DNA of 64,000 nt, taken from the NCBI GenBank assembly GCA_044236265.1, contig JBIIGV010000233.1:15187-79186 (forward strand). Reading direction: 5' to 3'. The position numbers and the translations under genes were made by a program. Below the pieces are notes generated by a model, which made no database searches, was not told the origin of the DNA, and was given only the letters and a program-made list of their open reading frames with translations. The stretch's first letter is position 1; each line of letters opens with the position of its first letter. The DNA is from Oligoflexales bacterium (GTDB lineage Bacteria > Bdellovibrionota_B > Oligoflexia > Oligoflexales > RGVZ01). Shown here piece by piece: positions 9,451 to 64,000 of this stretch.

Positions 9451-9458
9451 GTGAGATC

Positions 9459-14248: not shown

Positions 14249-15159
14249 AATATCTTAGCTTGATGCCAATTATCTTCGTCTGCGTATCGTGCGGTGCTAA
14301 TCCGCCAGCAAAAAAGCCCTTGGCGAATGAATTTGAGTCAGATGCCAGTGCCGCGAATGTGGATGGCAAGTCTCCTTATGCGCTCGCATGCTCAGAGGCT
14401 GTCAGACGTGATGCTTACGGCCAAACTCTTGATGAGGCATTCAATATTTTGTGTGCCGGTGATTTGAAACCAAGTGGCACGTTTGTGAAAACACTAGCTG
14501 GAGATCCCTGGGACGGCTCGTCAGGCCTAAAGATTTTCAAGATTGGAAACGCTGAGCACGACACGGCAGCAAGAACGACAAAACTAACGGGCGGCGGCAC
14601 AATTCTAATTCCGATCGAGGCTGAAAAGTTTGCGGAGATGTCTCTTCTATATGCTGCGAATCCAGATTTGGCGGAGGAGCACGGAATTCGTCTTGTCGAT
14701 GGATTGAGGTCAGAACGGAAACTCGATGAAAATCTTGGGTCGATGGATGGCGTTCTCATGGGTAGAGTTACGTCGCGCTTATTGATCGAAAAAGAAATCA
14801 ATCATCAGAGAATCACGATTGAATATGACGCATCTCGCTCATCAGCCAGGTTCTCCCGAGATGTTTTTGTAACAGCGACAAAACTCATACGCCCGATCCA
14901 GGGCATCAAAGACATGTACAGCGTCAGTCTTTCTTACCCATGGGAGGGTGCAGTCGCCGTCACGACATTGATTATGACAAAGACCGACAATAAAAATCAG
15001 CCTGGTGTCGCTGCCGAAGCATTAATGAAAACATTTAAAGAGGGGATTCAGAACCTGCGCGCTAACGCAGTTGTCATGGGGCTGCGAGAATCAGAGTTAT
15101 GGCTTCATGCCCCCGATGCGTGGGATGATCTATTGAACGGGGTTGCAAATGTGGATTGA
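14245..15159 (+). CDS. Hypothetical lipoprotein (304 aa), possibly START/SRPBCC-like fold
   Basis: GGAGG SD; lipobox CVS-C; a run of beta-strands followed by a long C-terminal amphipathic helix (AAEALMKTFKEGIQNLRAN). The fold is inference only. Confidence 0.75.
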   Translation: MKYLSLMPIIFVCVSCGANPPAKKPLANEFESDASAANVDGKSPYALACSEAVRRDAYGQTLDEAFNILCAGDLKPSGTFVKTLAGDPWDGSSGLKIFKIGNAEHDTAARTTKLTGGGTILIPIEAEKFAEMSLLYAANPDLAEEHGIRLVDGLRSERKLDENLGSMDGVLMGRVTSRLLIEKEINHQRITIEYDASRSSARFSRDVFVTATKLIRPIQGIKDMYSVSLSYPWEGAVAVTTLIMTKTDNKNQPGVAAEALMKTFKEGIQNLRANAVVMGLRESELWLHAPDAWDDLLNGVANVD

Positions 15160-18532: not shown

Positions 18533-21500
18533 ATGTTTCTCAAACGACTGAAATTTATGGCGCAGTTCAAAGCTGGTCAAGCTTTGCTATCTATTGTCAT
18601 ATTCAGTTTCCTACTCTCCTGTGAATCCAACTTTTCGGGTAAAGTCCTTAACTCCAATAGAAAAAATAATCCATTTGCTACGGCAAATCTGTTGGAGGGT
18701 CAGGTTGCGTTTAAAACAACAAAGTTGTCGACAAAAGCACGCGGAACTCGCCTTTCTGGAGAAGCCTGTACCGATCAAGCAACGGTCTACTTGACACACT
18801 TTGCCACATATCAAGACAGCTTAGTTATTGAGGTTCGCAAACGCATTCTATCGGTTAAGGCCGATAGCGATGGGCGCTTTAAATTTACGAACTTGAAAGA
18901 ACAGGGCGTAAATCTTCAGTCAAAAAATGATATTTATAAGGTGGAAGCAGAGCGTTGCAGCGACTACTACTCAAGGGTCGTGACAGGAGCGCAGGAGCAA
19001 AACCTAAGTGCAGCTGGTACCGCATTTGACTTCACACTCGACAAAACTGTTATCAAAGCAAGTCTTGGATCAGACGACTTTTACGCCAAACTGGAGGATT
19101 TGGATAAACTGTACAGTCTTGCTGACACTCGCAACTCGGTCGAAGGTGTATTGGAAACACTTCGCACGAGTCGTGAAACACAAAAATCATATAGCAATAT
19201 TTTTGGTGCTGAAGATGTCACTCTTCAGAATATCGAACCCCGAATTGTAATTGAGTCCGTACCCCTTAAAATTCCCGCAACTATTCTGACCCGTTTTGAA
19301 GTTTTAGCTGTTTACTATTCCGCCGAATTCAATGTCGATTATCGGTGGAAGTTAGACGGCGAAGTTGTCAGCACTGACCCTGGGTTTAGTTGGCGCCCGA
19401 CGTCGACCCAGCTCGGTCTGCACACTATCGAGTTGAGTGTTGGGGTGCGAAGCCAGTTTAACCTGGACGCATACCTTAACTCTAAGATCATGAATTACTC
19501 GATCAATGTTGTTGAAGCAACCTCCGATCCACGAACGCCCGTCGTGTCGAGTTTTGCTTTGGCTAACGCCGCGGCTGGTGGATTTATCAATAATGCTCAT
19601 GCTTCGGACGCAGAAGCTGTCGCAAGTTTGGTTGCCACCAATTATGATCAAGCCTCATATGCAATTGTCGCCCCGAACGTCACTTGCAATGAGTCTACGT
19701 CATTCCCGCTTGCTTCGATCCCGACTTTTGGAAGCTTTACAGTAGATGGAAGTTACAAAGTCTGTGCAAAGGTTTCGCGAAGTGATGGGGGCACTGTTTA
19801 CGTAGCAACTCAAACGTTGCAACGGGATGTTGTGATACCATCCGTGAGCTTTGTCGATGTGTTGCCCAAGGCTGGATCGACGAACCCGAAGCCGACAATC
19901 AAAGGAACGGCATCCGAGGCATCTTTAGTCTCTCTGTACTACGATGCAAGTTGTTCTTCTGCGAAGTCTTCAGCAACGGCAAACACAGTTTTTGCGTCAC
20001 CAGGAATGACCGTTGCATCTGATGTTAATTTAAACAATACGACGACAATCTATGCGCAGGCGGTTGATCCGGCTGGAAACCCATCGCCGTGCTCTTTGAT
20101 GTTGACGTACACCCACGACGACGTAACGCCCATTGTTAAAAATATCAAAGCTAATGTGGCCGATAATGGCTACAAGGCTGGCGATGTTATCCCGATTGAA
20201 GTGGAATTCTCTGAGCCAGTAAAAGTAACTGGCGTGCCGACTTTGACTCTTGAAACAGGATCGTCTGATGTTGTGGTTAATTACACATCTGGATCTGACA
20301 CCAAGTTTCTGATTTTCAACTTTACGGTCGGATCAAACCAGACAGCTGCGGACCTCGACTACATTTCAGCGACGGCTCTGTCTGCTTCCGGTGGTAGTAT
20401 TCAGGATCAAGTTCAAACTGATGCAGTCCTAACATTGCCAGCCCCTGGGGCAGCTGGCAGTTTGTCGGCAAATAGTAACATTCTGATTGATACGACCATA
20501 CCAGTAGTCACATATGCGTCGATCTCTCCTTCGTCCCCAGGTACAAGTCTGACACCAGCCGTATCGATGTCTCTAAGTGAAAACGCGACCGTGACCTTAT
20601 ACGGTAACAGTAGCTGTTCGGATGCAATTTCATCGGCTACGGCCCTGTCGGGAACCGGTTTACAAGTTATTACGACGAATACGCTCGCAGCTAACGCTGC
20701 GACAACGATCTTTGCCCGCGCCGTTGATGGTGTGACAAATCAGTCTGTTTGTCACAGTATGATTGTCTATACGCATGACAATATTGCGCCAACCGTCGCG
20801 TCTTTTGCGAGATCATCTGGCCAAAATTCATTCACTAATTCCGTACCAATAAATTTTGGCGTTCAATTTTCTGAAGTGATCGACCCATCAACATTCACGG
20901 CAAGTGATATTTCTAACACGGGTACTGCGACCGATATCGTTTGGACTGTTACGGACTCTGGTGATCACCGCAACTTTGTTGTAGCTGCGACGCAATCTGG
21001 AAACGGTACATTAAAGCCATCTTTTGCAGCGACTGCGGTGAGTGATCCGGCAGGGAATGCAATTCAGTCCATTTCGACGTCATCTAATGACGTGGCATAT
21101 TCTATCGCCCTATTCACTGTAACGTTGAATCAAACAGCTGGGCAGGTTGATCCTGCAAACTCGTTGCCGATATCGTTCACAGCCGTGTTCTCTGATGAGG
21201 TGGGTACAGGTCAGTTTGTCGCTCAAGATATTGTTCAGCAGGGCACTGCTTCAGGAATCACCTGGAATTTGGCAACTACGGATAATATCACATGGACGAT
21301 CACAGCGACTGCGATAACGGGTCAGGGAACCGTCGTTCCTCATATTCCTCAAGATGCAGTTTTAGACCGCTACGGAAACAAAAATGGTGCGTCAACTCAC
21401 ACAGATAACTCCGTGGTTTATGACATTACGGCTCCGACGATCACATTTACAAATCTTACTCCAGCAAACCCTTCTTCGGAGCTGCGTCCAACGCTCAAAG

Positions 21501-24500
21501 GTACGGTGTCTGAAGCGTCGATTGTAACCTTGTACTTTGATAGTAGCTGTTCGGCAGCCAAATCCGATGCTGTTGCGAACACAGTGCTGCCTATGCCTGG
21601 TCTTGCACCAAATATTGATGTAGCTGCCGATACAATGACGCCGATTTATGCGCGCGCCATCGATCCCGCAGGCAATATTTCGGTTTGTACGTTAATGGTC
21701 AATTACAACCACGACGGCACGCCTCCGTTCGTGGTGTCAGTTGGCTCGACTAAAGCTGATGGCTTCTATAAAGCTGGCACGGTCATCCCGATCGCCGTCA
21801 ATTTCTCTGAAAATGTATTTGTGGTTGGTACTCCGCAAATAACGCTCGAAACTGGCTCTACAGATCGAGTTGTAAATTATTCAAGTGGATCAGGCACTCC
21901 GACATTAGTCTTCAACTACACGGTTCAGGCTGGTGATACGGCAGCCGACCTTGATTATCTGGATACCTCAGCCTTCGCACTAAATGGCAGCACCATTAAA
22001 GACTGGGTTGATAACGATGCTGTCATGACTCTTCCATCCACCGGCAGCGCGACCAGTATCGCTGGCCAAAAATCAATCGTCATCGATACAGCCGTACCCG
22101 CTGTCTCGTTCGTGTCAATCTCACCTGTATCTCCAGGAATGAGTCGAACTCCCTCGGTGACCGTCAATGTGTCAGAAAATGCGAGTGGGATCGCCTTATT
22201 CAGTAACCCAACGTGTGGATCTGCAATCTCGGCGAGCATAGCGGGATCATCCGGCAACAATACTGTGGTGACGAATACGCTGACCGCTGATGCTCTGACT
22301 CCAATTTACGCTCAAGTGACAGACCTCGCCGGTAACGTTTCCTCCTGTGCGAATATGACCGGCTACCAGCATGACGGTACGCCTGCCGTTGTCACGTCCG
22401 TGTCTTCATCTTTGGCGAACGGAACATATGGTGTCGGCCAAGTGATTCCAATCGAAGTCAGCTTCTCGGAAGTCGTTTATGTCAACGGGACACCGTTTTT
22501 GACGCTCGAAACTGGCGCTACGGATGCCGTCGCCAACTACGCATCTGGTTCCGGTACCAACAAGCTGACTTTTAACTACACTGTCGTGGCCGGCGAAAAC
22601 ACTCTTGATTTGGAACTGACGTCACTGAGTGCGATAAATCTTAATTCCGGCACAATCAAGGATCTCGCTGGCAATGACTCAACCGTGACGGTAACGCCAC
22701 TGGCTGGCGGTAGTAGCTTATCTGGACAAAAGGCTATCGTCGTGGATACGACAGGGCCGACGCTAACATATGCCTCAGTCTCTCCGGTGCCTCCGGCTAC
22801 TTCAAGAACACCCGCGGTGACCATGAGTCTTTCTGAGCCTGCTGCCGTGACTCTGTACAGTGACAGCGATTGTTCTGCCGCGATATCGTCGTCAGTGAGT
22901 TTTGCTGCTGGCGTAGGTCGAACAATCACGACCAACACACTGACAGCTAATGCGACGACGCCGATTTTTGCAAAAGGTATAGATGCTGTAAACAACGCAT
23001 CAGCTTGTACAAGTATGATTGTGTACACGCACGATGATACGCCGCCAGTTGTGATGTCCTTTGCTCGTGCATCGAGTCAGATTGCCCAGACGAACTCTGT
23101 TCCAATTAATTTCACGCTGACATTCTCTGAGCCTATTAATCCCTCGAGTTTGACGGCGGGAGATATCTCCAATATTGGAAACGCGACAGGAGTTACATGG
23201 TCGATCTCTAATTCAGGCGACAATGCAACTTTCACGGTATCTGCAATCGCAGCAAGTAACGGAACCCTCCAGCCAAGATTGGCTGCGGCGAGCATTGCTG
23301 ATCATGCCGGCAATACAAACGTAGCCGGTGCGGACTCGCCAAACAATGTCGGTTATTTTGTAGCGGTGTTGACGGTGACGATGAATCAGGCTGCTGGACA
23401 AGGGGATCCAGTCAACGGTTTACCAATTAGTTACAACGTTGTATTCTCTGGAGCAGTAGGTGCGAATAGTTTTACGACTGGTGATATCGTTCAGAACGGC
23501 ACAGCTGGGGGAATTACTTGGACACTGTCGACCACTGACAATATTAGTTGGCTCCTACGGGCTACTGCGATAGCGACTCCGGGTACAGTCATCCCGTCGA
23601 TTGCAGCAAGCTCTGTCATCGATGAATTCCAGAACCAGAATGCGGCTTCAACATCGACCGACAATACAGTCGTCTACGATATTACGCCGCCGACGTTAAG
23701 CTTTTCATCTTTGACGCCATCCAATCCTTCGCAGTCAATGACGCCGACGATTATCGGTACAGCGTCTGAGCCGTCGACGGTGACGCTATACTACGACTCC
23801 GGATGTTCTGTCGCTAAGTCAGCCACGGTTCCGAACACCTCGTTTGCAAGTCCTGGTATCACGCCGACAGGTAATGTGGCTGCTGATACTGCCACCGTGA
23901 TTTACGGTATGGCTACCGATACGGCAGGGAACATTTCTGCTTGTACGAGTCTTGTCTCTTATGTTCACGATGGTACCGGGCCAAGCGTGACGAGTGTCAC
24001 GTCTACATTAGCTGACGGTCCTTATAAGGCAGGTCAAGTTGTCCCTGTCTTCGTGAACTTCAATGAAAATGTAAACCTCGCTGGTACTCTGCAATTGGCA
24101 CTAGAGACTGGTGCGATTGATGCAGTTCTAAACTATGTGTCTGGAAGTGGTACGAGCTCCCTAAGATTTAACTACACAGTGGTTGCTGGAGATACCTCGC
24201 TAGATCTTGACTATGTCAGTTCAGCTTCTCTGGCTCTTTTAACAGGTACCCTTCGCGACGCTGTCGGAAACGATGCAGTCCTCACGTTACCTGCTCCTGG
24301 AGCGTCTGGAAGTATGGGTGCAAATAAAGCGCTCATCATCGACACGACGGCGCCAACGATGACTTTCTCAAATACGTTGCCGGTTTCGCCTGGTAACACT
24401 CAAACCCCACAGGTGACGTTCACTATTTCAGAGAACGTACCTACCGTAAGGCTGTTTACAGATAATGCTTGTTCGGTGGGTGCCGCTCCTGCAAGTACTG

Positions 24501-60500: not shown

Positions 60501-63500
60501 CGACAAGCACGACGCCAAGCGTCTCGATGACTCTCTCTGAGGCTGCGCCATCGAACGGTCTAAGACTATATTCAAATGCAACCTGTACTGTGGCGATCTC
60601 GTCGGCGATTTCTGGCACAGTCGGTGGAAATACTTTAGCCACCACGACCGTAGGGACTAACGCGACAACGGCTATTTACGCGAGGGCTACAGATAGTGCC
60701 GGAAACGACTCGATCTGTACGCTTATGACTAACTACACCAATGACTCGGTTGCGCCTAGTGTTACCAATGTCACATCAACGGCTACAAACGGCACCTACC
60801 GCGTTGCACAGACCATCCCGGTCACTGTGACGTTCAATGAGTCGGTGACTGTCACTGGAACGCCGACGATCACTCTTGCGAACGGCGGGGCAGGGGCGAC
60901 AGCATCTTACGCCTCAGGCTCTGGAACGACCACATTGACATTCAATTATGTTGTGGCTTTAGCTGATGTATCTGCTGACCTTGACTATGCATCGACCTCA
61001 GCCCTCACGCTGGCGGGTGGTTCAATTAATGATGCCGCTGGAAACGGCGCTTCTCTGAGCTTGCCGGCAGTTGGTGGTGCGAACAGTATTGGTGGCCAGA
61101 AGGCTATTGTCATTCAGACGGCAGCCCCAACCATCACGTTTGCATCCATCTCGCCTACATCGCCTGGTACGAGCTTCACACCAACCGTGACCATGACTTT
61201 ATCCGAGGCAGCAACGGTCACACTATATAGTGACAGTGGTTGTTCGACTGCGATTTCGTCTCCAACCGAGTTGTCTGCTGGTTCCGGCCAGGCTGTGACG
61301 ACGTCGACACTCGCGGCGAATAGCTCAAGAACAATCCATGCCAAAGCAGTTGCGGCGAACAATAACCAGTCAAGCTGTACAAGTTTGGTAGCTTATACCC
61401 ATGACAATGTTGCTCCGACTGTCTCATCTTTTGTTAAGAAGGTTGGCCAGGCTTCGTCGACAAACTCTGTGCCGATTAACTTCACGTTAACGTTCTCGGA
61501 AGCTATCAATCCAGCTAGCTTCACTGCTGCTGATATTACAAATATCGGAACAGCAACCGGCGTTACCTGGTCCATCACCAACAGCGGCAATAACCAGACA
61601 TTCAATGTTGCGGCCGCTTCATCAGGCAATGGAACGCTGCAGCCACGTTTGGCAGCTGGTGCGGTGACAGATCCTGCTGGTAACACCTTTGGAACGCAGG
61701 TGGATTCTGCCGACACCATCAGTTATTCTGCAGCAGTATACAGCGTCACGTTGAATCAGGCATCGGGTCAGTCTGATCCTGCGAATACACTTCCGATTAC
61801 GTATACGATCGTCTTCTCAAGTGCGGTTGGCTCAAGTAGCTTTACGACCGCAGATCTTTCAAACGCCGGCACGGCGACGGGCATTTCTTGGGCGCTATCC
61901 ACCAGCGATAACACGACTTGGACGTTGACGGTATCTGCATCCGGTCAAGGAACAATCGCTCCAGTGGTAGCAGCGAACGGAGTCACCGACGCGTTCGGTA
62001 ACCAAAACAGTGCCTCGACGGCGACAGATGGCTCTGTCACGTACGATAACGTGGTGCCAACCGTAAGCTTCTCTTCGGCTAGCCCAGGTACAACATCATC
62101 ATCTCTAACCCCGACCATCCTCGGAACAGCGTCCGAGACGTCGACAGTCACCCTGTACTACGATAGCGGTTGCGTCACGCCAAAATCGGCGGCTACGGCA
62201 AATACTGCATTTGCGAGTCCTGGTATTACAGTAACTGGCAACGTAGGTAGCAACACAGCGACCACGATTTACGGTAAGGCCGTCGATGCTGCAGGTAATG
62301 CCTCCACATGTGCGACATTAACCACCTACAATCATGACAGTAGCGGCCCAACCGTTTCCAGCGTGACATCAAGCGCTGCAAATGGATCCTATAAGGTCAA
62401 TGCAGCACAGTTGATTCCTGTCACAGTGACATTTAATGAAGCGGTTGTTGTGACTGGCACTCCGACATTGACTCTCGAAACTGGCACAAATGACGCAGTT
62501 CTGAGCTACAGCTCGGGATCGGGAACGGCAACGCTCACATTCAATTACACAGTCTTCGCAGGGGACACATCGAGTGATCTTGATTATGTCAGCACATCGT
62601 CTCTATCGCTGGCCAGTGGCACGATCAAAGACCAATATGGCAATGATGCAACCTTGACACTACCTGCACCAGGCGCGGCTGGAAGTCTGGGAGCAAACCG
62701 CAGTATCGTTGTTGATACAACAGCTCCGACATTCACTTATACGTCTGTTACGCCAGCGTCACCAGGCACGAGTGCGACACCTCAGGTGGCGTTCGAAATT
62801 TCTGAAGCCTATAGCTCGGCAGGCCTATACTCCGATGCTTCCTGTAACACAGGTATCTCAGCAACTTCCAGTGGCAGTGCGGGTGGTAAGACCATCACCA
62901 CAAGCTCGCTAACGGCTAATGTCACGACATCGATTTATGCAAAGGTTACTGACTCTGTCGGTAACATTTCGAGCTGCTCGCTATTGACGACCTACGTTTA
63001 CGACGCCGCCTCACCAACCGTTACCAGCGTCTCGTCGACCACTGCAAATGGAACCTACGGAGCTGGTAGCACAATCGCTATCAACGTTGTCTTCTCTGAA
63101 GCAGTGACGATTACCGGCACGCCACAGTTGACCCTTGAGACTGGAACAACTGATGCTGTGGTCGACTACGTTTCCGGAAGCGGCACAAATACACTTCTAT
63201 TCAACTATAGTGTCCTTGCAGCGCACTCCAGTGCTGATCTTGATTATCAGTCGACAGCTGCTCTTTCGGCAAATGGCGGAACGATCAGAGACGCGGCTGG
63301 AAATACGGCGACGCTGACATTGCCGGCTCTTGCGGGTGTTAACAGTATCGCTGGTCAGAAGGCCCTTGTGATTCAAACCGTTGCACCAACTGTCACTTAC
63401 GCATCCATTGCACCGACATCGCCAGGCAGCAGCCGTACGCCGACTGTGACCATGACACTATCAACCGCTGCAACTGTGACCCTTTACAGCGAAAATACCT

Positions 63501-64000
63501 GTAATACGGCTATCTCCGGTGCGACCGCGCTGTTGGCTGGGGCGGGTCAGACGATAACGACGGCCTCATTGACCGCAAATGGTTCAACGACCATCCATGC
63601 CAAAGCTGTAGCCGCAAATAATAATCCATCGGCGTGTACGTCTCTGGTTACTTACACCCATGATAACGTCGCTCCTACGATTGTGTCCTTTGACAAGGCG
63701 TCAGGTCAGGGATCCTCAACGAATTCGACTCCGATTAACTTCACGCTGACGTTCTCTGAAGCAATTTCTGCTGCGTCGCTTACAGCTGCTGATTTCACAA
63801 ACCTTGGAACGTCGACGGGCATCACTTGGACCATTACGGATTCTGGTAACCAAACGACGTTCAATGTGGCCGCAGCTGGTCTCACTAACGGTACGGTTCG
63901 TCCACGTCTTGCAGCTTCCGGTATTACCGATGGTGCAGGCAATGCGAACGTGGCAGCTAGTGACTCTGTTAGTACGATCACCTACAATGCTTCTCCGCTC
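18533..64000 (+). CDS. Giant Ig-like-repeat surface lipoprotein/adhesin, >15,156 aa, 3'-truncated by the window end
   Basis: ATG 18533 follows an in-frame TGA at 18509; MFLKRLKF...IVIFSFLLS-C (Cys30). All repeat markers checked from 21128 to 63371 and the last codons (DSVSTITYNASPL) are in frame +2. The ORF track lists no stop-terminated frame +2 ORF here, consistent with no internal stop. Bacterial Ig-like signatures DTTAP, VTFSExVxVTGTPxLTLETG, SGSGTNTLTFNYTV and DxAGN recur throughout. Confidence 0.95.
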   Translation, partial: MFLKRLKFMAQFKAGQALLSIVIFSFLLSCESNFSGKVLNSNRKNNPFATANLLEGQVAFKTTKLSTKARGTRLSGEACTDQATVYLTHFATYQDSLVIEVRKRILSVKADSDGRFKFTNLKEQGVNLQSKNDIYKVEAERCSDYYSRVVTGAQEQNLSAAGTAFDFTLDKTVIKASLGSDDFYAKLEDLDKLYSLADTRNSVEGVLETLRTSRETQKSYSNIFGAEDVTLQNIEPRIVIESVPLKIPATILTRFEVLAVYYSAEFNVDYRWKLDGEVVSTDPGFSWRPTSTQLGLHTIELSVGVRSQFNLDAYLNSKIMNYSINVVEATSDPRTPVVSSFALANAAAGGFINNAHASDAEAVASLVATNYDQASYAIVAPNVTCNESTSFPLASIPTFGSFTVDGSYKVCAKVSRSDGGTVYVATQTLQRDVVIPSVSFVDVLPKAGSTNPKPTIKGTASEASLVSLYYDASCSSAKSSATANTVFASPGMTVASDVNLNNTTTIYAQAVDPAGNPSPCSLMLTYTHDDVTPIVKNIKANVADNGYKAGDVIPIEVEFSEPVKVTGVPTLTLETGSSDVVVNYTSGSDTKFLIFNFTVGSNQTAADLDYISATALSASGGSIQDQVQTDAVLTLPAPGAAGSLSANSNILIDTTIPVVTYASISPSSPGTSLTPAVSMSLSENATVTLYGNSSCSDAISSATALSGTGLQVITTNTLAANAATTIFARAVDGVTNQSVCHSMIVYTHDNIAPTVASFARSSGQNSFTNSVPINFGVQFSEVIDPSTFTASDISNTGTATDIVWTVTDSGDHRNFVVAATQSGNGTLKPSFAATAVSDPAGNAIQSISTSSNDVAYSIALFTVTLNQTAGQVDPANSLPISFTAVFSDEVGTGQFVAQDIVQQGTASGITWNLATTDNITWTITATAITGQGTVVPHIPQDAVLDRYGNKNGASTHTDNSVVYDITAPTITFTNLTPANPSSELRPTLKGTVSEASIVTLYFDSSCSAAKSDAVANTVLPMPGLAPNIDVAADTMTPIYARAIDPAGNISVCTLMVNYNHDGTPPFVVSVGSTKADGFYKAGTVIPIAVNFSENVFVVGTPQITLETGSTDRVVNYSSGSGTPTLVFNYTVQAGDTAADLDYLDTSAFALNGSTIKDWVDNDAVMTLPSTGSATSIAGQKSIVIDTAVPAVSFVSISPVSPGMSRTPSVTVNVSENASGIALFSNPTCGSAISASIAGSSGNNTVVTNTLTADALTPIYAQVTDLAGNVSSCANMTGYQHDGTPAVVTSVSSSLANGTYGVGQVIPIEVSFSEVVYVNGTPFLTLETGATDAVANYASGSGTNKLTFNYTVVAGENTLDLELTSLSAINLNSGTIKDLAGNDSTVTVTPLAGGSSLSGQKAIVVDTTGPTLTYASVSPVPPATSRTPAVTMSLSEPAAVTLYSDSDCSAAISSSVSFAAGVGRTITTNTLTANATTPIFAKGIDAVNNASACTSMIVYTHDDTPPVVMSFARASSQIAQTNSVPINFTLTFSEPINPSSLTAGDISNIGNATGVTWSISNSGDNATFTVSAIAASNGTLQPRLAAASIADHAGNTNVAGADSPNNVGYFVAVLTVTMNQAAGQGDPVNGLPISYNVVFSGAVGANSFTTGDIVQNGTAGGITWTLSTTDNISWLLRATAIATPGTVIPSIAASSVIDEFQNQNAASTSTDNTVVYDITPPTLSFSSLTPSNPSQSMTPTIIGTASEPSTVTLYYDSGCSVAKSATVPNTSFASPGITPTGNVAADTATVIYGMATDTAGNISACTSLVSYVHDGTGPSVTSVTSTLADGPYKAGQVVPVFVNFNENVNLAGTLQLALETGAIDAVLNYVSGSGTSSLRFNYTVVAGDTSLDLDYVSSASLALLTGTLRDAVGNDAVLTLPAPGASGSMGANKALIIDTTAPTMTFSNTLPVSPGNTQTPQVTFTISENVPTVRLFTDNACSVGAAPASTGLMGSNTVTTSALPANTGTSLYVRSTDAAGNVSSCTLLTTYTHDGIPATVTNVSSSSTNGTYGVGNTVAIVVTFSEIVNVTGAPQLTLETGAIDGVANYVSGSGTTALTFNYVVSAGESSLDLDYGSTTALGLNGGTIRDRAVNNADLTLPAVGGASAIAAQKGIIIDTTAPTITYSSISPVPPSASMSAFVTLQVSEASTVTLYSNPGCSAAISSAKAMISGGDQMISTVNLPTNTSTTIYARAVDPVNNVSECTNMVVYTHDNIAPQVDSFTRAATQASYTNSLPMNFTLTFSEPIIPETLTGSDFVNMGTATAVTWGVADSGDHRTFTVSATASGNGTLRPRLASGAITDLAGIGNPLNATSDNSVNYSIAAFTVTVNQAPGQGDPVNSLPINFRVVFSGAVGSNSFTASDVVQNGSAEGVTWNLSTTDNITWTVSATAVNIQGTVIPFISPNTVLDEFGNNNAASTSTDSSVVYDIAAPVLTFASVTPSNPAATRTPTVLGTSSEPSTVTLYYDSDCSTAKSSAASNTVFASPGIALTSNVDADVTTTIYGRAVDVAGNVSICTSLVGYQHDGTSPTVTNVTSTLANGPYKAGQLIPIQVTFSEPVFVTGAMQLTLETGLSDAVVAYTVGSGTSTLTFNYTVAAGNTAADLDYVGTSALALISGTIKDSVGNDANLALPSPGSSGSLGANKSLWIDTTAPVLAFTSINPVSPGISQNPQVTFTVSELVPTLRLYTDAICSAAISGWNTGSAGANTIATSTLAGNVATSIFAQGTDPAGNTSNCTSLTTYLNDGLAPTVTGVTSTAADGTYGGGQVVPIKVDLSEVVFVTGTPQLTLETGASDAVVNYSSGSGTTSLIFNYTIVPGHDSVDLNYASMSALVANGGSIKDLAGNDANLALAALDAASSLASQKAIVIDTTVPVMSYVSISPVPPAQSQTPTVTFSLSEPSTVTLYRESGCSTAISSAIPLAAGPAQSITTNTLTSNAATTIFAKAIDTVTNPSECTQLVVYSHDNTSPAVSSFARNATQPAMTNSLPINFTITFSEPINPSSFVSTDLSNGGTATGVTWFINNTGDNQSFTVSVTNSGNGTIIPRLASGSIADIAGNTNSGITSASNSVNYSVAPYTVSVNQAPTQIDPVNTLPVNFRVVFSSAVGNNTFTPADIVQNGTATGITWSLSTTDNITWTVAATAISGGSGTVIPSIAENTVTDEFGNINGASTSTDNTVIYDVTPPVVTYSSLAPANPSSELRPSFLGSVSEISTVTLYYDGSCANARSATVPNTQFASPGITVNSNVTANNSTIIYAKAVDTANNESACTSLVSYLHDSIGPSVVSVSANIADGSYKAGMVLPITVTFTENVYVNGTLQITLETGTFDAVVNNSSGSGTDTLVFNYVVAPGEVTPDLEYSGSAALALISGTIKDAVGNNAVLTLPATGASGSLGLNKSIIIDTTAPTLTYTNIFPASPGNTQTPQVSLDLTEPVTVLRLYSDASCTAAISPASTGTIGPNTVTTNTLTANASTTIYGQGTDAAGNVSLCTLLTSYQHDGISPTVTSVSSSSANGSYGVGQTVAVTVVFSEPVLVSGTPQITLETGSSDAVVNMTTGTGTNTLTFNYTVRAGDTTGDLDYLSNAALALNGGIIKDPAENLAVLALPNTGGATSIAGQKNIVIDTTAPVITYQSVSPSSPAMSQTPTLTVTMSETATVTLYSNGSCSSAVSTPTVLNGGVGRTISTNALPANTTTTLYAKAVDPVNNVSSCSVMVVYTHDITSPTVSSFTRSAGQLASTNSVPVNFTLTFSEPINPNSFTAADISNFGTSTGVLWTVTNTGDNTSFIVAATVASNGTLQPRLASGGVTDVAGNSNFGNVNSSNTVNYFVAAYTVMVNQNDGQAESTNALPINFTVVFSGAVGNNTFDTSDIVQNGTASGITWSLSSSDGITWNLSATSILGDGTVIPSVAANTVVDEFGNNNGASTSSDNSVNYDVTLPIVAFSSVSPSNPAATLKPTIRGTVTESSTVALYYDSGCSTAKSSAMSNTVFASPGITVTGNVNANTTTAIYAKAVDAVGNVSSCTYLTTYNHDGIGPVVTGVNATMSDANYKAGQTIPITVTFNELVFVTGTPQITLETGSADAIVNYTSGSGTNTLTFNYIVFAGDTSADLDYISTTALTFNAGTIKDGVGNSATLTLAAPGSSGSLGANRAIIIDTTAPVITYNSIAPTSPGISLAPQLTLTLSEAVTAFRFYSDPVCSSPISSSASMGSGSNTRATDTLAANVVTTIYGQSVDQAGNTSLCTMLTSYRHDDVGPTVSSVTSTANNATYGVGAVIPVTVTFTEPVFVTGTPQITLETGVTDAVVNYSSGSGTSTLRFNYTVALGQNTGDLEYVGTSSLSLNSGSILDTAGNAVDLALPALGSAGSIAGQKNIVVDTTAPTLTYESIAPVSPGMSQMPIVTVALSEPANVTLYSDHTCSAAISGSTSLSSGSGQAITTFTLTSNTTTDIYGKAVDPVSNASSCLNLVVYTHDNVAPSVASFVRAAGQPSFTNSIPINFTMTLNEPVDVSTITASDISNTGTATGITWSVTSVSNTVFTVSATSSGTGTLIPRLANGSFQDVAGNVSISQFTASESVNYTASPFTVTINQASSQGDPSATDPVNFTVVFSRAVGSGSFTAADIVQNGSLGSITWTLTTSDDITWNLAASGMAATGTLIPSIASGTVVDLYGNSNAASTSTDNTVNFDITPPTLAFASLSPSNPAATLRPTIRGTASKASTVTLYYDVSCSTAKSAGASNTSFATPGITPTANVNSNTTTIIYAKAVDSLGNASSCTSLVTYSHDGVSPTVTGVSSTLANGPYKAGQLIPITISFTEVVTVTGTPSLTLETGAADSVVNYSSGSGTNTLTFNYTVFNGDTAADLDYVSSAALALNNGSIKDPVGNDATLTLPAPGALNSLGSNKNLVIDTTAPALTYTSILPVPPSSSSTPQVSLSSNEAATNLQLYSNSSCSTAISSPASGTVGGNVISSTGVNLNAPTTVYAQATDSAGNISTCTLMTTYVHDDVPPTITSVSSSSGNGTYRVGQSLAITATFSDPVTVSGVPQLAMETGAVDTVANYSSGSGSSTLTFTYTIALNDTSSDLDYAGTSALALNGGSIIDAAGNNAALTLPAPAGTGSLGAQKALVIQTAPPVLSYTSIAPTSPGTSRQPVVTLSVNEAATVTLYSDSGCGTAISTGTAISTGAGQTITAYTLPSNTGTSIYGKAVAAYGNTSACTNLVVYTHDNIAPTVTSFVKAAGQNSFTNSIPLNFTLTFSEPINASSFTVNDLMNIGTATGVSWEIVPVSSTVYTVSVTSAGNGSVTPQLVSGTVTDPAGNATANNYDSADTVNYTAAAFTVSVNQASGQADPVNVLPVSYTVVFSGAVGSSSFDVSDVTQAGTASGVTWGLSTADNITWTLTATAASSSGTIIPSIAADRVVDAFGNNNSAATSTDKTVTYDITSPTVTFASLSPANPSSSLTPTIRGTVSEASTVTLYYDVNCSTGKSAATASTAFASPGIVVNANVNSNTSTAIYAKAVDNVGNESSCTSLVSYTHDGVSPTITNVTSGLADGTYKAGQVVPVSLTFSEAVTVTGTPKISLETGATDAVVAYSSGSGTNTLTFNYTVFSGDVSADLDYISTTALALDGGTIRDHVGNNAVVTLPAPGTSGSLAANKALVVDTAPPSVTFTSISPVSPGSSRTPQLVVNTSEAMSDIQIYTDASCTTSVSSSQSAGVGSKSITTSPLPANAQSSLYAYGLDIAGNPSACTLMTSYLHDDLGATIAFVTSTSSNGTYGVGNQIVITVRFSEAVYVTGVPQLTLETGASDAVVNYASGSGTNTLSFNYNVLSGQSSVDLDYQSTTSLSLNSGTIKDVSGNNATLTLPTPGDSNSLAGQKDIVIDNTAPTITYTSISPPSPGISQTPTVTMDLSESATVTLYSDNTCTAAISNATLLSGGAGQTVTTISLTPNATTTIYAKGLDAVSNASTCTNLVSYVHDNTPPLASTFARASGQPALTNSLPINFTVAFNEPIAASSFTSADISNGGTATGTTWTVTAVSSNTYTIAATTANNGTLIPRIALGGVTDIAGNATTSMNNSSETVNYSTAALSVVINQAAGQADPVASGPITFTVQFSNPVNPGTFTAADIVQNGTATGISWALTTTDDTTWNLTASGMAGSGTVIPSIADTTVVDVFGNNNAASTSTDNTVTYDITAPSLTFSSLSPSNPGSTLTPSVRGTASKASTVTLYFDSLCSTSKSAATASTAFSSPGITLTGLVNSNTTTTIYAMAVDALGNASGCTQMVVYTHDGAPPTVTSISSTLADGYYMAGQLIPITVTFSENVTVTGTPNLALETGSTDATINYTSGSGSNVLTFNYTVAAGDTSSDLDFVGSSSLVLNGGTIRDVIGNNAILTLPAPGTAGSLAANKALVVDTAAPSLTYTSINPVSPNSSQTPQVTLVLSEAAQNVQLYSNPVCNNAISSSSVGSVGTNVITTTTLLSNATTSIFAKMTDLAGNDSFCVSMTNYANDMTAPGVSSVTSTSTNGTYVVGQTIPVSITFSENVYVTGTPQLTMETGATDTVADYASGSGTNTLVFNYVIALNDASLDLDYHSAGALGANGGTIKDLAGNNAVLTLASPGAASSLGANKAIVIQTTLPTISSASISPASPGSTRTPTVSMTLSDASTVTLYSNSDCSTAISAAKSLVAGSGQTVTTYTLASNVATQIYGKAVAAFGNTSVCTSLISYTHDDVAPFVSSFVRASGQNAFTNSTPVNFTLTLSESINVSTLTAVDISNAGTATNVVWSVASVSSSVFTISANSSDNGTIIPRLAANAVADPAGNTNVAQASATDTVSYTAATYTVTLNQATGQSDPINALPVNFTVVFSSAVGSSSFDVSDITQTGTASGITWTLASADQITWTLSVTAVTTPGSIVPMIASNRVVDEFGNQNGQSASTDNSVVYDTAAPVVTFSSVTPANPSSSLNPRFFGSVSEASVVTLYYDVSCTTAKSSATANTVFASPGILVTGAVNANTTTTVFAKAVDTAGNASVCTNIVTYTHDGIGPTVTDVTTGLANGSYKAGQAVPISVTFSEVVTVTGTPNLTLETGATDAVLAYSSGSGSNTITFNYTVFAGDTSADLDYVATTSLVANGGTIKDAVGNDATLTLPAPGAAGSLGGNKGVIIDTTAPSVSYTSISPVSPGATRTPQVTISLSEAASSVELFSDAGCSASVSAAAAAAAGSNTITTTNLTANGSTSLFAKMTDIAGNASSCSLMTSYTHDGNDPTVTVVSSTKADGTYGTGTLIPITVTFSENVYVTGTPRITLETGATDALVDYTSGSGTTTLTFNYTVGAGEASADLDYESTGALVLNSGTIKDLSGNNANLALPALASASSLAGQKAIVLDQTAPTITFTSINPVSPGMSQTPTLTLSLSEAATVTLYTDSGCSAAVSSATSLASGAGQTIATNSLNANVSTSLWAKGVDLVGNVGSCSSMVTYIHDSAAPTVSTFARAGGSPTNSLPVNFTLTFNEPINPASLTSADFTNAGTATGVAWSVTNSGDSTTFTVAATVSGNGTLQPRLASGGMTDVAGNANASAVTASNSVSYSVAAFSVAINQAAGQSDPVRTLPITFTAVFSDAVNPTTFDASDIVQNGTAGGITWNLSSTDNITWTITASGLGASGSVIPSIASSTVKDTFGNDNAASASTDNTVSYDITVPTFSSITVSPANPAATLTPTVLGVVSKASTVTLYYDSSCTTAKATPAANTVFATPGITVTGNVNPNTTTVIYGQAVDALGNTSLCTNLVTYTHDGAAPTVSGVSANLANGPYKAGQVVPVEVTFSENVTVTGVPQITLETGATDAVVTYTSGSGTNKLTFNYTVFAGDTSADLDYVATTSLALNGGTIKDSVGNNATLTLPAPGASGSLGASKDLVIDTTSPTLAYTSITPVSPGTTRTPQVALTISEGVTNIQLYSNALCNAAVSSAAAGTSGANTITTNNLTADNSTLIFAQATDAAGNASACTSMTSYTHDGTAPTITGVSSTSANGTYRVGQTIPVTVTFAENVYVTGTPSLLMETGSTDTAASYVSGSGTSTLTFNYVVALTDQSSDLDYQSAAALTVAGATIQDLAGNNATLTLAAPGATNSLADQKAIVIQTTKPTIAYTSISPASPGTSRTPTVSMTLSEAATVTLYTDNTCNTAKSAATALSAGAGQTVTSYTLTANAATDLYAQAVGAFGNTSLCTMLVSYTHDSIAPTVTSFVRASGQAAFTNSVPVNFTMTFSEAIDPALFTANDISNSGTANGVTWTVTNSGNNTTFTIAATSSGNGTLIPRLGVTGIADPAGNTNGSPYDTTQNVSYTAATFTVTVNQASGQADPVKTLPAQYTVVFSSAVGNSSFDVIDVSNSGTATGVVWGLATSDNITWTLTATSASSDGTIIPVIAQNTVQDEFGNQNGAATATDRSITFDSAAPTFSGPYTVSPANPSSSLTPTIRGVTSEASTVTMYYDSGCITPKSAGTANTAFVTPGITVNSNVNANGTTTIYAKAQDTAGNESSCTTIVATYTHDSMGPSVTNVTSSQSNGSYKVTAAQIIPISLTFSEAVNVTGTPTLTLETGATDAIATYASGSGTSTLVFNYTVFAGDTSSDLDYAGTAALALSGGTMTDAVGNNATLTLPAPGAAGSLGANKALIIDTTLPTVAFTSISPVSPGASLSPQVTINSSEAGSMELFSTSNCNSSISTAITGSVGANTIATNSLAPNASTSIFAKVTDAAGNASSCTSMTTYLHDGVDPTVTSVSSTAANGSYGTGQTMAITVSFSEVVYVTGTPNLTLETGATDAVINYASGSGTNTLTFNYTVASTHNSLDLDYESTTALLLNGGTIKDVSLNNAVLTLPTVGGVNSIAGQKAIVIDNVVPTITYTSMTPASPAMGLTPTLTMSLSEAATVTLHSDHTCTAPISVDTALSSGAGQTITTQALTANATTSIYAKAIDVVNNPSVCTSLTTYTNDSLAPTVVSFARAAGQGSVTNSVPVNFTITFSEDMSAASFTGADISNTGTATGVTWAVTQVSSTVFTVAASSANNGTLIPRLANASVTDVVGNATTAQADATNSVNLVNGGLTVTVNQASGQADPTNGSTINYTVVFSRAIDPTTFASDDIFQNGTATGLTWTITTSDNITFNLAASGMSATSTVIPSISSTRVKDTFGNDNAASTSTDNTVNYDVTAPTLTFASISPSSPASTLMPMVSGTASKPSTVTLYYDSGCSTAKSSAESNTVFALPGIALTANVSSNTATSIYGKAVDALGNASSCSALTTYTHDGISPTVTNVTAVHADGTFKAGELIPIKVTFSEAVTVTGTPRLTLETGSVDAVVNYTSGSGTAELTFNYTVFAGDTTSDLDYISTSALALNGGTIVDHVGNAASVTLPAVGGVASIAGQKSLVIDTTAPTVAFTSITPVSPSNNLTPAVALTLSETASDVRLYSDSGCSSALSNAANAAAGPYTITTTTLTANQTNNIYARTTDVAGNQSACTLMTNYAHDGVAPTVTSVSASSANGTYHVGQTVAVTVAFSEVVTVSGTPQLTLETGASDAVIDYVSGSGSNTLTFNYTVALSHASPDLDYTSTASLAANGGSVQDGSGNNATLTLPGVGGPNSIAGQKAIVIQTSKPTIAFTSITPSSPGTSQTPTVTMSLSDASTVTLYSDGGCSTAISAPTALSAGAGQSVITQTLAANGQTQIHAQAVAAFSNTSLCTSLVSYTHDNVAPSVTSFARAGGQVEFTNSVPANFSITFSEAINPASLTAADITNAGTAAGVTWTVTNSGNNTTFTVAASTAGNGTIQPRLAIGAVTDPAGNASGSQVDASNSVSYTQATFTVTLNQASGQADPVKTLPVLYTVVFSSPVGASSFTDADIQNQGSGTTVTQWQLETADNVTWTLKAMAVTGNGTIMPVITANSVQDAFGNLNGASTSTDRTVTYDTTAPTLTYVALTPANPSTSLMPTILGTASETSTVTLYYDGGCSTPKSVATANTQFATPGIAVTGNVNSNASTVIYAQAVDTAGNLSSCTSLVTYNHDGVGPTVTNVTSTASDGNYKVTNAQTIPVTVTFSEVVTVTGTPTLTLETGATDAVVSYSTGSGTNTLTFTYTVFAGDTAADLDYVSASSLVFNGGTVKDGVGNNATLTLPSPGAAGSLGANKAIIIDTTAPTIGFAVISPTSPATSQTPTVTVTLSEGLSAVQLFSDSSCTASASVSSNGSAGNKNIVTTTLNANATTSLYAKGTDIAGNVSICASLTSYTHDNAGPTVVSVTSSLANGTYGLGQVVPVAITFSEVVSVTGTPTLTLETGAVDGVASYVSGSGTNTLNFSYTVGAVDGTADLNYASTTALALAGGSILDASTNPADLTLPALANASSLGGQKAIVLDLTAPTITYASIAPTSPGTTATPTITMTLSEAATVTLYSNSGCSASISDAKALVSGVGQTITTNALTANTEISIYAKGIDTVNNASGCASLTTYTYDSVAPAVSSFAVAGGQVAVTNSVPINFTLTFSEAINPSSFTAADISNAGTATGVDWSVTNSGDNTSFTVSATLAGNGTIQPRLATASVADPAGNLNAAVSTATGSVSYSQAAFTVAINQASGQSDPVRTGPITFTAVFSSAVGSSTFSAGDVAQSGTAANVTFAVTSLDDITWTITASGMSGSGTVVPTIASNRVKDLFGNDNAASTSTDNTVSYDVTTPTLTFASVGSGNPGSSLTPTILGTVSKASTVTLYFDSGCSTAKSAPTANTAFASPGITLTGNVNANTSTTIYGKAVDSLGNETCSLLTTYNHDGAGPSVVSVAVNKANGSYKTGEVIPVQITFSEAVTVTGAPQITLETGATDAVVDYTSAASSTVLNFNYTVSPGDTTADLDYASTTALALNSGTIRDAVGNNATLTLPAVGGAASIGGNYAIVIDTTAPSVTYNSITPASPASNLNPQVALTLSEAVANVQLYSNSGCSAAVSTATAGTAGANTITTSALSANTTTNLFAQASDAAGNQSACTSMTAYLHDGVAPTVQSVTATAANGTYRVGQTIPVTVTFSEAVTVSGTPQLTLETGATDAVVNYASGSGTATLTFNYVVGLNDSSADLDYTSTAALALNSGTIADAAANNATLTLPTVGGAGSLGANKALVIQTTPPTVTYNSISPSSPNSSQTPTVTMTLSDAATVTLYSNGGCSTAISAGAALSAGSGQTVTTYTLSPNVTTQIFAQAVAAFGNTSSCTSLVSYTHDNVAPTVSSFVRATSPVQAQFTNSVPVNFKITFSEAINSGSFTASDIINTGTASGVTWTVSNSGDNINFTVAASASGNGTLIPRLAANAVTDSAGNNNGSQYDATESVSYTAALYTVTVNQASGQADPVNSLPVNYTVVFSSAVGSSSFAVGDVTNIGSASGVTWTLTDSGDGITWNLSATATGAGTIIPSIAANTVKDAFGNDNAAATTTDRTVTYDNVVPTFSSISVSPAATSSSLTPTILGTVSESSTVTLYFDSGCTTPKSAAAANTVLASPGVQVTSNVNSNTTTTIYGKAIDAAGNASACATLATYTHDGVGPTVTNVSSTAADGTYKVTAAQTIPVTITFSENVVVTGTPTITLETGSTDAVVSFSSASGNTMTFTYTVFAGDTATDLDYVGTGSLVLAGGTIKDTYGNNATLTLPSPGAASSLAANKAIVIDTAAPMISYTSIAPVSPGSSLTPQISISLSEAVSSVQLFSDGSCSSSASSASTGSAGAKTITTSALTANATTALYAQATDIVGNISSCSLMTSYRHDGAAPTVLSVSSSLANGTYGLGQVIPVTVTFSEVVTVTGTPQLTLETGATDAVVNYVSGSGTAALTFNYTVAVGHGSSDLDYTTNTALAFNGSTIVDGSGNAAVLTLPAPGTGSSLAGQKAIVIDLVAPTIAYSSISPASPGMSQTPTLTITLSEAATVTLYSNNSCTASISAATSLASGSRTITTSNLTSDTAISIYAMAVDAVNNASGCEIMTSYTYDSIAPAISSFSVKVPQVAVTNSVPVNFTVTFSEAINPSSFTAADISNAGTATGVAWSVTNSGDNTTFTVAATLSGNGTIRPSLASASVNDVAGNANALSGQSSGSVDYSVAAFTVAVNQASGQADPVRSGTISYTAVFSSAVAGSSFTAGDVTNAGNAPGVSFAVSSIDNINWTITASGMSGSGTVIPTIASGAVTDAYGNTNAASTSTDNTVTWDVTVPTLTFSSVSGGNPGNSLTPTVLGTASKASTVTLYYDASCSTAKSTPVANTAFASPGITVSGNVNANTTTIIYAKAVDALGNESSCANLVTYQHDGVSPAVASVTANKGNGSYKAGEIIPIEVTFNDTVTVTGAPTLTLETGAVDTAVNYTSGSGSAVLTFNYTVAAGDTSADLDYATTTALSLASGTIKDSVGNNADLTLPAVGGASSIAGQKAVVIDTTMPSVTYTSMSPSSPGSSLTPQITLSLSEAAGTSLRLFSDSGCSLAISAVGTGTAGSNTVTVTSVNAEAATSIYAKAVDTAGNGSACTLMTSYTHDSVAPAVTSVSSTAANGTYAVGSLVPITVTFSEAVTVTGTPTLAINSTASAISYASGSGTNTLTFNYTVALADAAADLDYTSTSALSLAGGTIKDAALNSATLTLGAPTSGTSLGGQKNIVISTVAPSMAYTSIAPSSPNISQTPTITFSLTQDATVTLYNSGACSTAVSGPVALTAGSGKTIQTYSLPANSSTPIHAKAVAAYSNVSSCTSLVSYTTDTTAPTVSSFVRATSPVQSQFTNSIPVYFKVTFSEPISPASFTGADITNIGTATGVTWTVTDQGDATNFTVAAVTGNNGTIQPRLAVGAVTDPAGNISGNQADATETVTYTAALYTVTLNQSAAQGDPVKTLPINFTVVFSTAVGNNTFAVGDISNAGSATGITWSLSSADNITWTLSATAITGAGTVIPDLAANTVKDVYGNDNGAATFTDRSVTYDVTAPSFSSISVSPSATGATLTPTILGTASETSTVTLYYDSGCTTPKSAATANTAFATPGIAVTGNVNTNGATTIYAKAVDAAGNASSCENLVTYTHDGTGPTVTNVTSTAANMTYKVDAGQSIPITVTFSEAVTVTGNPTLTLETGSTDAVVTYSSGSGSTTLTFTYTVFAGDNSTDLDYVSTSALGLNGGTIKDAVGNNATLTLPVPSQAGSLGANRAIVIDTTAPALTYTSILPATPGNTPTPQVTLSLNEAAATLRLFTDAACSSTASAQVAGSIGSNTVTTTALTANQVISIYGKATDAIGNASNCTLLTSYTYDSVNPTVTGVTSSLANGTYGLGQLVPITVTFSESVTVTGTPQLVLETGATDAVVNYVSGSGTNSLLFNYTVGAGHQSADLDYASQSALSTNGGTIRDVAGNNATLTLAATGSGSSIAGQKAIVLDQTPASITFASITPTSPGTSATPTVAIDLDKASTVTLYSDSSCTAAISDATSLTAGSSRTITTNALTSDVAISIHAKAVDAVNNASACTSLVSYTYDSIAPTVSSFVVKAGQPLITNSLPVNFDITFSEAIDLSSFTAADISNAGTASGVAWTITDSGDHMTFTVAATVSGNGTIQPRLAASAVTDVAGNVSGSIVPASASVSYSVAAFTVAINQASGQADPVRTGPITFTAVFSSAVGSSSFTNGDVIQSGSAANVTFTVSSIDNINWTISASGMSGTGSVIPTISSGVATDTFGNTNAASTSTDNTVAYNVTPPSISFVSVSGGNPGSGLTPTILGSAGAGSTVTLYFDSGCTTSKSAAAANTVFASPGIALTGSVSSDTATTIYGRAVDTLGNESSCTLLTTYNNDTTSPTVTSVTANKTDGTYKSGVSIPIEVTFSESVTVTGTPQITLATGGANTAVNYVSGSGTTTLSFTYIVAAGETSIDLDYASTSALGLNLGTIKDAVGNDANLTLPTVGSGNSIAGQKAIVIDTTAPTITYSSVSPASPATSTTPSVSMTLSEAAPSNGLRLYSNATCTVAISSAISGTVGGNTLATTTVGTNATTAIYARATDSAGNDSICTLMTNYTNDSVAPSVTNVTSTATNGTYRVAQTIPVTVTFNESVTVTGTPTITLANGGAGATASYASGSGTTTLTFNYVVALADVSADLDYASTSALTLAGGSINDAAGNGASLSLPAVGGANSIGGQKAIVIQTAAPTITFASISPTSPGTSFTPTVTMTLSEAATVTLYSDSGCSTAISSPTELSAGSGQAVTTSTLAANSSRTIHAKAVAANNNQSSCTSLVAYTHDNVAPTVSSFVKKVGQASSTNSVPINFTLTFSEAINPASFTAADITNIGTATGVTWSITNSGNNQTFNVAAASSGNGTLQPRLAAGAVTDPAGNTFGTQVDSADTISYSAAVYSVTLNQASGQSDPANTLPITYTIVFSSAVGSSSFTTADLSNAGTATGISWALSTSDNTTWTLTVSASGQGTIAPVVAANGVTDAFGNQNSASTATDGSVTYDNVVPTVSFSSASPGTTSSSLTPTILGTASETSTVTLYYDSGCVTPKSAATANTAFASPGITVTGNVGSNTATTIYGKAVDAAGNASTCATLTTYNHDSSGPTVSSVTSSAANGSYKVNAAQLIPVTVTFNEAVVVTGTPTLTLETGTNDAVLSYSSGSGTATLTFNYTVFAGDTSSDLDYVSTSSLSLASGTIKDQYGNDATLTLPAPGAAGSLGANRSIVVDTTAPTFTYTSVTPASPGTSATPQVAFEISEAYSSAGLYSDASCNTGISATSSGSAGGKTITTSSLTANVTTSIYAKVTDSVGNISSCSLLTTYVYDAASPTVTSVSSTTANGTYGAGSTIAINVVFSEAVTITGTPQLTLETGTTDAVVDYVSGSGTNTLLFNYSVLAAHSSADLDYQSTAALSANGGTIRDAAGNTATLTLPALAGVNSIAGQKALVIQTVAPTVTYASIAPTSPGSSRTPTVTMTLSTAATVTLYSENTCNTAISGATALLAGAGQTITTASLTANGSTTIHAKAVAANNNPSACTSLVTYTHDNVAPTIVSFDKASGQGSSTNSTPINFTLTFSEAISAASLTAADFTNLGTSTGITWTITDSGNQTTFNVAAAGLTNGTVRPRLAASGITDGAGNANVAASDSVSTITYNASPL
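19826..64000 (+). repeat. Degenerate tandem super-repeat of ~2256 nt (7 Ig-like domains): 1 short unit, 18 full units, 1 partial unit
   Basis: NQxxxQx(D/E) marker at 21128, 23384, 25640, 27896, 30155, 32408, 34661, 36914, 39167, 41417, 43673, 45935, 48191, 50456, 52715, 54971, 57230, 59492, 61754 (spacing 2250-2265 nt, all multiples of 3). Confidence 0.95.

Follow-up and report, generated by a model that had tools for sequence, protein, structure and literature searches.

A predicted giant lipoprotein, at least 15,156 residues long, with a seven-domain Ig-like super-repeat in an Oligoflexales bacterium

Titin is built from Ig-type domains in a fixed order whose blocks were duplicated as whole blocks, and intimin combines LysM, a barrel and an Ig passenger. 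MpIBP of Marinomonas primoryensis is, according to the accessible text of PMC5550230, a protein of 1.5 MDa with more than 130 domains and a length of 0.6 μm. LigA and LigB of Leptospira are described in the available part of PMC7821625 as lipidated surface adhesins of 12–13 tandem Ig-like domains, LigA having about 130 kDa. For the lipoproteins InvL and PulA, surface anchoring by way of type II secretion (T2SS) is an established route (PMC12802150, available part). MAT fibres are trimeric and of a different class from the protein reported here (PMC10769870, available part), proteins of the Omnitrophota reach 147,155 aa (10.64898/2026.06.07.730766, available part), and predation by Oligoflexus is predicted and unconfirmed in the accessible text of PMC10385382.

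In this study, we analysed a window of 64,000 nt (C202:15187-79186) from an Oligoflexales bacterium, in which the original prediction had placed one open frame (+2) from ATG 18533 to the end. Positions 18512-64000 were indeed stop-free in this frame, with 15,156 codons and 0 in-frame stops from the ATG, and the remaining five frames contain 489–1,084 stops over the same stretch. A single unbroken gene encoding more than 15,000 residues was thereby confirmed as real at the level of sequence. Contig C202 (79,186 bp) ends at position 64000, which means that the assembly truncates the gene; the extension into a next window that had been suggested was impossible, because the ORF runs off this contig. 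The predicted product of at least 15,156 aa has a mass of 1.519 MDa, in line with the expected minimum of about 1.5 MDa, and a pI of 4.1. Its anticipated richness in Thr, Ser, Ala, Gly and Val agreed with the computed composition (T 15.9, S 13.3, A 12.5, V 9.2 and G 8.0%; Ser+Thr 29%), and 357 N-x-S/T sequons were counted. The gene makes up 1.4% of the assembly, and its codon use compared with the rest of the genome gave an r of 0.75. The features of the locus are listed in Table 1.

Table 1. Features of the giant gene and its upstream partner in the window.
Feature	Position	Strand	Evidence or remark
Partner gene, 569 aa: signal peptide, LysM-like region, Pro-rich spacer, predicted C-terminal outer-membrane beta-barrel (aa 339-569), terminal Trp	16684..18393	+	ESM Atlas, alignment
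Giant ORF, 15,156 aa	18533..64000	+	3' end open at contig end
Predicted Sec/SPII signal peptide ending in lipobox FLLS-C30	18533..18622	+	Pattern match, hydropathy
N-terminal family module, ~aa 31-337, invariant Cys79/Cys142, PKD-like domain at end	18623..19543	+	Common to large Bdellovibrio lipoproteins
Single extra domain, Cys385/Cys411	19544..19825	+	Profile matches to positions 300-400
Unit 1, shortened to five domains (E-A1-B2-C-D)	19826..21421	+	Shortened likewise in G001 and G004
Units 2-19, 18 complete seven-domain super-repeats (E-A1-B1-A2-B2-C-D), 750-754 aa each	21422..62044	+	Repeat profiles
Unit 20, cut after domain C by contig end	62045..64000	+	Public-run contigs continue past

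Among named records, those of Oligoflexales and Oligoflexus matched the adjoining acyl-CoA dehydrogenase gene best. The super-repeat also occurs in the Oligoflexales bacterium records L133 and L136 and in two more records labelled Polynucleobacter by the depositor, and the giant sequence is present in lake and freshwater metagenomes; no RNA data set was among those listed, which has no bearing on expression. A promoter/terminator scan of the locus stayed at chance level and an Rfam scan gave no match. Elsewhere in the window, at 13223-16414 (+), a barrel-like ORF of 423 aa and two ORFs that resemble lipoproteins overlap at their ends and lack Pfam matches; they have paralogues on C73, C204 and C109 and are not kept upstream of the giant gene in relatives. 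A DEDD exonuclease/GIY-YIG gene overlaps that of a DinG-like helicase whose N-terminus weakly matches PD-(D/E)XK (7933-11807, +), and the minus strand carries secreted-looking ORFs without clear family (1-1983, 2930-4471, 5540-6592 and 6620-7789), a run that includes a region resembling serine proteases and bearing repeats with Cys, a weak match to LIC10025 and a protein of propeller-like type.

The N-terminus of the giant shows a basic N-region, then a hydrophobic stretch, then FLLS-C30, which we take to match the PROSITE-type lipoprotein pattern; the alternative start Met9 yields the same lipobox Cys. The lipoprotein signal with LLS-C30 proposed originally was upheld, as this Cys is kept in 4/4 orthologous N-termini (the window, L005, L007 and L008) and LspA and LolA are encoded. 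The lipidated Cys would be followed by ESNFSGK, with 3 G/S and 1 N/D in P1'-P8' of the giant and 4 and 1 in the orthologues. No hydrophobic segment above 1.62 was found in the giant outside the signal peptide. Exactly two cysteines are present in each E/B domain (59/59) and none in the A/C/D domains (78/78); the other five are C30 and two pairs, giving a total of 61 Cys pairs. Paired cysteines in the E/B domains fit Sec export and periplasmic oxidation.

Using profiles built from the repeats, we counted exactly 137 Ig-like domains over residues 432-15,151, the number that had been estimated as approximate, and matches of some domains to Pfam Big_5, Big_12, Big_13 and Big_6 are in line with an Ig-like type. 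The domains form 20 units with a super-repeat period of seven domains (752 aa) and fall into two sequence classes, E/B of ~96 aa resembling Big_13/Big_6 and A/C/D of 107–125 aa resembling Big_5/Big_12. When single domains (n = 28) were scanned against Pfam, seven lay above the Big cut-off (Big_5 six times, Big_13 once), 11 gave weaker matches and 10 none; one E/B domain scored Big_5 at 22.7, below the cut-off. PDB sequence searches with the super-repeat and with A/C/D domains returned nothing significant, a stalk-domain match to 6m3a was weak (E 0.023), and the N-terminal alignment matched PDB sequences through its Ig part only. A plasmid search gave partial A-domain matches only. The extra domain type (aa 338-431) belongs to no Pfam family and is found in 15–32 copies in other proteins of 1,800–4,200 aa (P0013-P0019 and others). 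Identity among units 6-20 was 63.6% at lag 2 versus 57.6% at lag 1. In a tree built with 44 units of four genomes, odd and even units were separated with a support of 0.99, with lineage-specific sub-clusters. The lag-2 excess and the odd/even clades together point to growth by 14-domain blocks, and this 7/14-domain register is a clear bacterial case of hierarchical block duplication. At an assumed 3.5–4.5 nm per domain the stalk would be 0.48–0.62 μm long.

Because the source is a short-read metagenome assembly (234 contigs, 88.7% complete), the length might be an artefact, with repeats multiplied by the assembly or joined across paralogues or strains; the entire stretch is contained in no single public contig, and the comparison with four public runs (X1-X4) covered the final 20 kb of the 45.5-kb gene. 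However, the 20 units show 50–69% protein identity and no more than 64% DNA identity, and their longest exact DNA repeat of 26 nt is too short to mislead an assembler, which argues that the array is not inflated. Run X1, which may be the source of the assembly, had a depth of ~9 that was flat along most bins, and its contigs measured 8,170 and 9,925 nt. Runs X2-X4, from three other lake studies, covered 30/30 bins with 0 indels, the longest piece being 2,775 nt and none spanning the stretch. The runs showed 128 differences in total; among the 40 listed, 35 were third-position synonymous and none created a stop. Relatives also show the identical domain order across 116 domains. An artefact is thus extremely unlikely, and the inflation that the original prediction had named as a danger was not borne out by unit divergence, X1 depth or the indel-free runs over these last 20 kb. 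At the open end, contigs of X2 and X3 extend 125 and 147 nt beyond 64000, respectively, and the continuation of an X1 contig matches 57602, a point inside an E domain and 382 nt beyond the in-register position, so that the array probably extends into a 21st unit. Strain differences are concentrated in the last kilobase before the contig end and are a plausible cause of the break at 64000. Among the other contigs of this assembly, none overlaps the 64000 end and none has C/D domains at high identity.

The N-terminal 340 aa were matched in 3/12 same-genus Oligoflexales genomes and in 0/47 other relatives searched. All three orthologues keep the lipobox Cys and run off their contigs; the domain order, including the shortened unit 1, is kept in G001 and G004, and G012 has a 20-domain piece. 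In G001, 56 domains on C1 and 60 on C6 follow the order of the window giant with no overlap between the contigs, and the C6 units carry on the odd/even alternation of the N-terminal piece, a register that fits one gene of probably at least ~14,400 aa. C6 closes with E-A-B-A-A, Big_12, 13 RCC1 matches (E 1e-122), a final ~95-aa domain and a stop. A functional tip beyond the window, as had been predicted, is therefore probable, and given a G001-type end the window protein would have a full length of ~16,700 aa. In its own genome the RCC1 tip found only a weak match of 22–29%, on C199; an exact 23-nt search of metagenome contigs for the missing 3' end gave 0 matches, and a protein search with unit 20 gave 18 loci, all distant (39–55%). 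Smaller same-genus proteins that consist of these domains carry a Kelch, RCC1 or glycine-rich head at their end, and since their tips vary, that of the giant may differ from RCC1.

Two candidates for the missing C-terminus were rejected. C30 continues C28 (96% over 394 nt) and has A/B domains only; the 7,822-aa ORF on C64 has a different repeat and a probable lipoprotein start of its own on C106, and G001 contains a distinct counterpart of 7,605 aa. C28 (1888-2, minus) and C30 (1-3378) appear to encode a smaller probable lipoprotein with A/B domains and an FN3-like and glycine-rich end, where the assembly is broken at near-identical repeats. The C64 ORF (minus, 53407-29942; L205) is a second giant with an open 5' end and about five 1,100-aa repeats without Pfam match; its probable 854-aa lipoprotein start lies at C106:1652-4214 and its G001 counterpart on C2. 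Other giants of at least 6,876 aa, with 28–34 A-type domains in a shared irregular order, were found on unrelated metagenome contigs (L118, L128, L117 and L131). G001 additionally encodes a 1,184-aa Sec-signal protein (L095:4825-8376, minus) with an unassigned 333-aa N-terminal region followed by E-A-B-C-D-E-A-B, which resembles an inverse autotransporter that shares its stalk domains with the giant.

A profile made from the four giant N-termini detected 430 proteins at E 0.001; the best 150 listed mostly matched the extra domain, and the 25 listed proteins whose best match fell in the N-terminal module were taken as the distant set. A lipobox-like motif was present in 21/25 of these (18 strict) versus 167/1,394 (12%) long ORFs of this genome. 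Most of the distant proteins have 1,000–3,000 aa and a Big_13 stalk, several have NHL-type ends, and one comes from an uncultured Bdellovibrio record (L176). Among 101 genomes around L176, 33 gave matches to a profile that included members of that group, and in 26 of these the match covered the N-terminal module. A giant-free profile of 10 Bdellovibrio-type proteins matched the window N-terminus at 101.6 bits (E 4e-31), the best of 200 shuffles scoring 5.4. Nine of these 10 members carry a lipobox-like motif, and five were found in the protein collection under the automatic names Bdellovibrio 'Ig-like domain repeat', 'beta strand repeat' or 'putative hemagglutinin/hemolysin-related'. In 130 genomes of its own phylum the module occurred only in the four giants, G102 and G098; a search of named genomes with the N-terminus alone gave no match, and an ESM Atlas search of the module scored at most 0.85, a lead only. 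These profile matches place the window protein at the giant end of a lipoprotein family reaching cultured Bdellovibrio, which is new.

The Acinetobacter T2SS lipoprotein sorting motif (GGG or ND(N/D), or more than 4 G+S or N+D in P1'-P8'; PMC12802150, available part), which was defined in Acinetobacter, is unmatched in the giant (3 G/S, 1 N/D). LspA and LolA were above cut-off in 5/5 genomes tested, VKOR was present in 4/5 and DsbB in 0/5. GspD was above cut-off in 4/5 genomes, and the own genome has a gspC-C-D-E-F-G operon; no GspN was seen on the short T2SS contig, and the T2SS genes are unlinked to the giant locus. Slam (PF04575) was found in 0/5 genomes, and control genomes gave no match either.

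The barrel of the upstream partner had an ESM Atlas feature score of 0.95 and a TM of 0.73 to outer-membrane barrels. Its presumed LysM-like region was identified by motif and has no Pfam match, the spacer is Ala-rich in relatives and Pro-rich in the window, and a PDB sequence search with the partner returned nothing significant. The gene is single copy and stands directly upstream of, and co-oriented with, the giant in 4/4 genomes with a giant N-terminus; as kin share gene order, these four cases are not independent. It was present in 5/60 relatives, all of the same genus (the fifth as a contig fragment), and 11 homologues in all were found. No gene of this type was seen beside family members at 12 other loci read by eye, so the partner belongs to the giant clade. 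In three relatives a gene co-oriented with the giant precedes the partner (L006:3849-4346, L007:12594-13367 and L008:139-912); it is absent there in the window and presumably encodes an FKBP-type peptidyl-prolyl isomerase.

The plan of anchor, stalk and variable tip leads to an adhesin reading. We consider it probable that the giant is a lipid-anchored surface stalk of ~0.5–0.6 μm presenting a predicted C-terminal beta-propeller binding head, whose ligand might be a prey cell, an alga or a particle. The chain would be exported by Sec, lipidated by Lgt/LspA and provided with periplasmic disulfides by a VKOR-type system; its domains would fold in the periplasm, and the T2SS might then surface the chain, as for InvL and PulA, a step whose chances we put at about even. 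Judged from the relative, the chain would have about two RCC1-type propellers and one final Ig-like domain at its end, and, speculatively, the LysM-like/barrel partner could link outer membrane and cell wall at the site of the stalk's pull. It is conceivable, but rather doubtful, that the Bdellovibrionota possess an undescribed class of lipid-anchored stalk-and-propeller adhesins with a shared 300-aa module and a length tuned by block duplication to more than 16,000 residues, in which the giant, with its titin-like 7/14 super-repeat and its own partner, would serve as a sub-micrometre tether for prey or host capture and rank among the largest Sec/SPII substrates reported.

For the outer-membrane step, the main alternative to the T2SS is the partner barrel. 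It could be a dedicated translocon or anchor, making the pair a split (two-partner) inverse autotransporter like intimin, and its adjacent, co-oriented position in all four genomes with the giant N-terminus, its predicted barrel fold, its confinement to the genus (5/60 relatives) and the fusion of a Sec signal and a 333-aa N-terminal region to the same E-A-B-C-D domains at L095 in G001 speak for this. However, a barrel of only ~230 aa (~10 strands by eye) is small for exporting disulfide-bonded domains, the 12 other family loci show no evident gene of this kind, and the L095 N-terminal region has no Pfam barrel match, so we regard this role as unlikely.

The chain might also be a non-adhesive coat or spacer, an acidic Ser/Thr-rich brush against grazers, phages or competing predators, or one raising drag, with the propeller tip secondary. 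This would suit the pI of 4.1, the 29% Ser+Thr and 357 sequons, the lake-water habitat, and an investment of 1.4% of the assembly in one gene, beside which another giant lipoprotein with 7,822 aa or more exists. But a strictly ordered stalk with interchangeable propeller heads is the plan of an adhesin, and a coat has no need of a conserved 7/14-domain register, which makes this explanation improbable. Since a lipobox alone gives no surface exposure and no known surface-sorting motif was matched, the protein could instead remain off the surface, as a periplasmic envelope scaffold or as a matrix fibre shed after export; LigA is partly released in truncated form according to the available part of PMC7821625. 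Yet a chain of 0.5–0.6 μm with a propeller head is hard to fit into the periplasm and the family members have adhesin-like tips, and we hold this location to be very improbable.

Our search found no paper on the giant, its family or a bacterial Ig super-repeat, with subscription journals thinly covered; supplementary giant-protein tables may list the family. In the accessible parts of these sources, 'lipoprotein' or 'Ig-like' was absent from 10.1101/2023.11.21.568195, 'lipoprotein' or 'Bdellovibrio' from PMC11573180, and 'lipoprotein' from 10.64898/2026.06.07.730766. No functional study of the Bdellovibrio module lipoproteins was found in the literature. As cultured Bdellovibrio, which are genetically tractable, have 1–3 members of the family, its export route and any part that it plays in prey attachment can be tested without culturing the present organism. 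Like the giant, those lipoproteins (for example P0184 = AHI05303.1 and P0172 = WP_374000339.1) have the 300-aa module behind a lipobox, an Ig-like stalk and a propeller-type C-terminus, but they have 1,600–3,000 aa, no seven-domain super-repeat and no partner barrel seen.

In conclusion, the giant shares with MpIBP, LapA and SiiE an N-terminal anchor, a very long Ig-like extender and a distal binding region, predicted in the present case. RTX adhesins of type I secretion lack a Sec signal and bypass the periplasm, whereas the giant has a lipobox signal peptide and 61 Cys pairs. No RTX nonamer occurs in the window protein, whose own C-terminus is missing, and one isolated copy occurs in the 7,342 aa of the G001 C-terminal piece; the proposed distinction from type I-secreted adhesins was thus supported. 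That known giant Ig adhesins are much shorter held for LapA and SiiE but failed for MpIBP with its 1.5 MDa (PMC5550230, accessible text). Size alone is no record, since MpIBP is equal in mass and Omnitrophota proteins are longer. LigA and LigB are likewise lipidated and built of tandem Ig-like domains, but they have 12–13 domains against at least 137 and no super-repeat, the giant uses other Big families (Big_5/12/13/6), and no Lig match arose in Pfam, NCBIfam and PDB scans of the giant. In inverse autotransporters (type Ve) barrel and Ig passenger form one chain, whereas here the barrel is a separate ORF ending at 18393, and scans of the window protein gave no match to the intimin/invasin family. 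InvL of Acinetobacter baumannii and PulA are lipobox proteins too, and a T2SS is also encoded here, but their GGG or ND(N/D) motif is absent from the giant. InvL and PulA are far smaller. The likeness to titin is one of organisation only, with no homology shown. Known adhesins of this size use type I secretion; a 1.5-MDa chain with ~60 disulfides that passed through Sec, was lipidated and crossed the outer membrane would, if true, stretch known lipoprotein surface export. The giant Ig-stalk adhesin plan is known, and function, export route and tip are predicted here; what is new is the lipid anchor, the disulfide-bearing domains, the hierarchical repeats and the link to Bdellovibrio.
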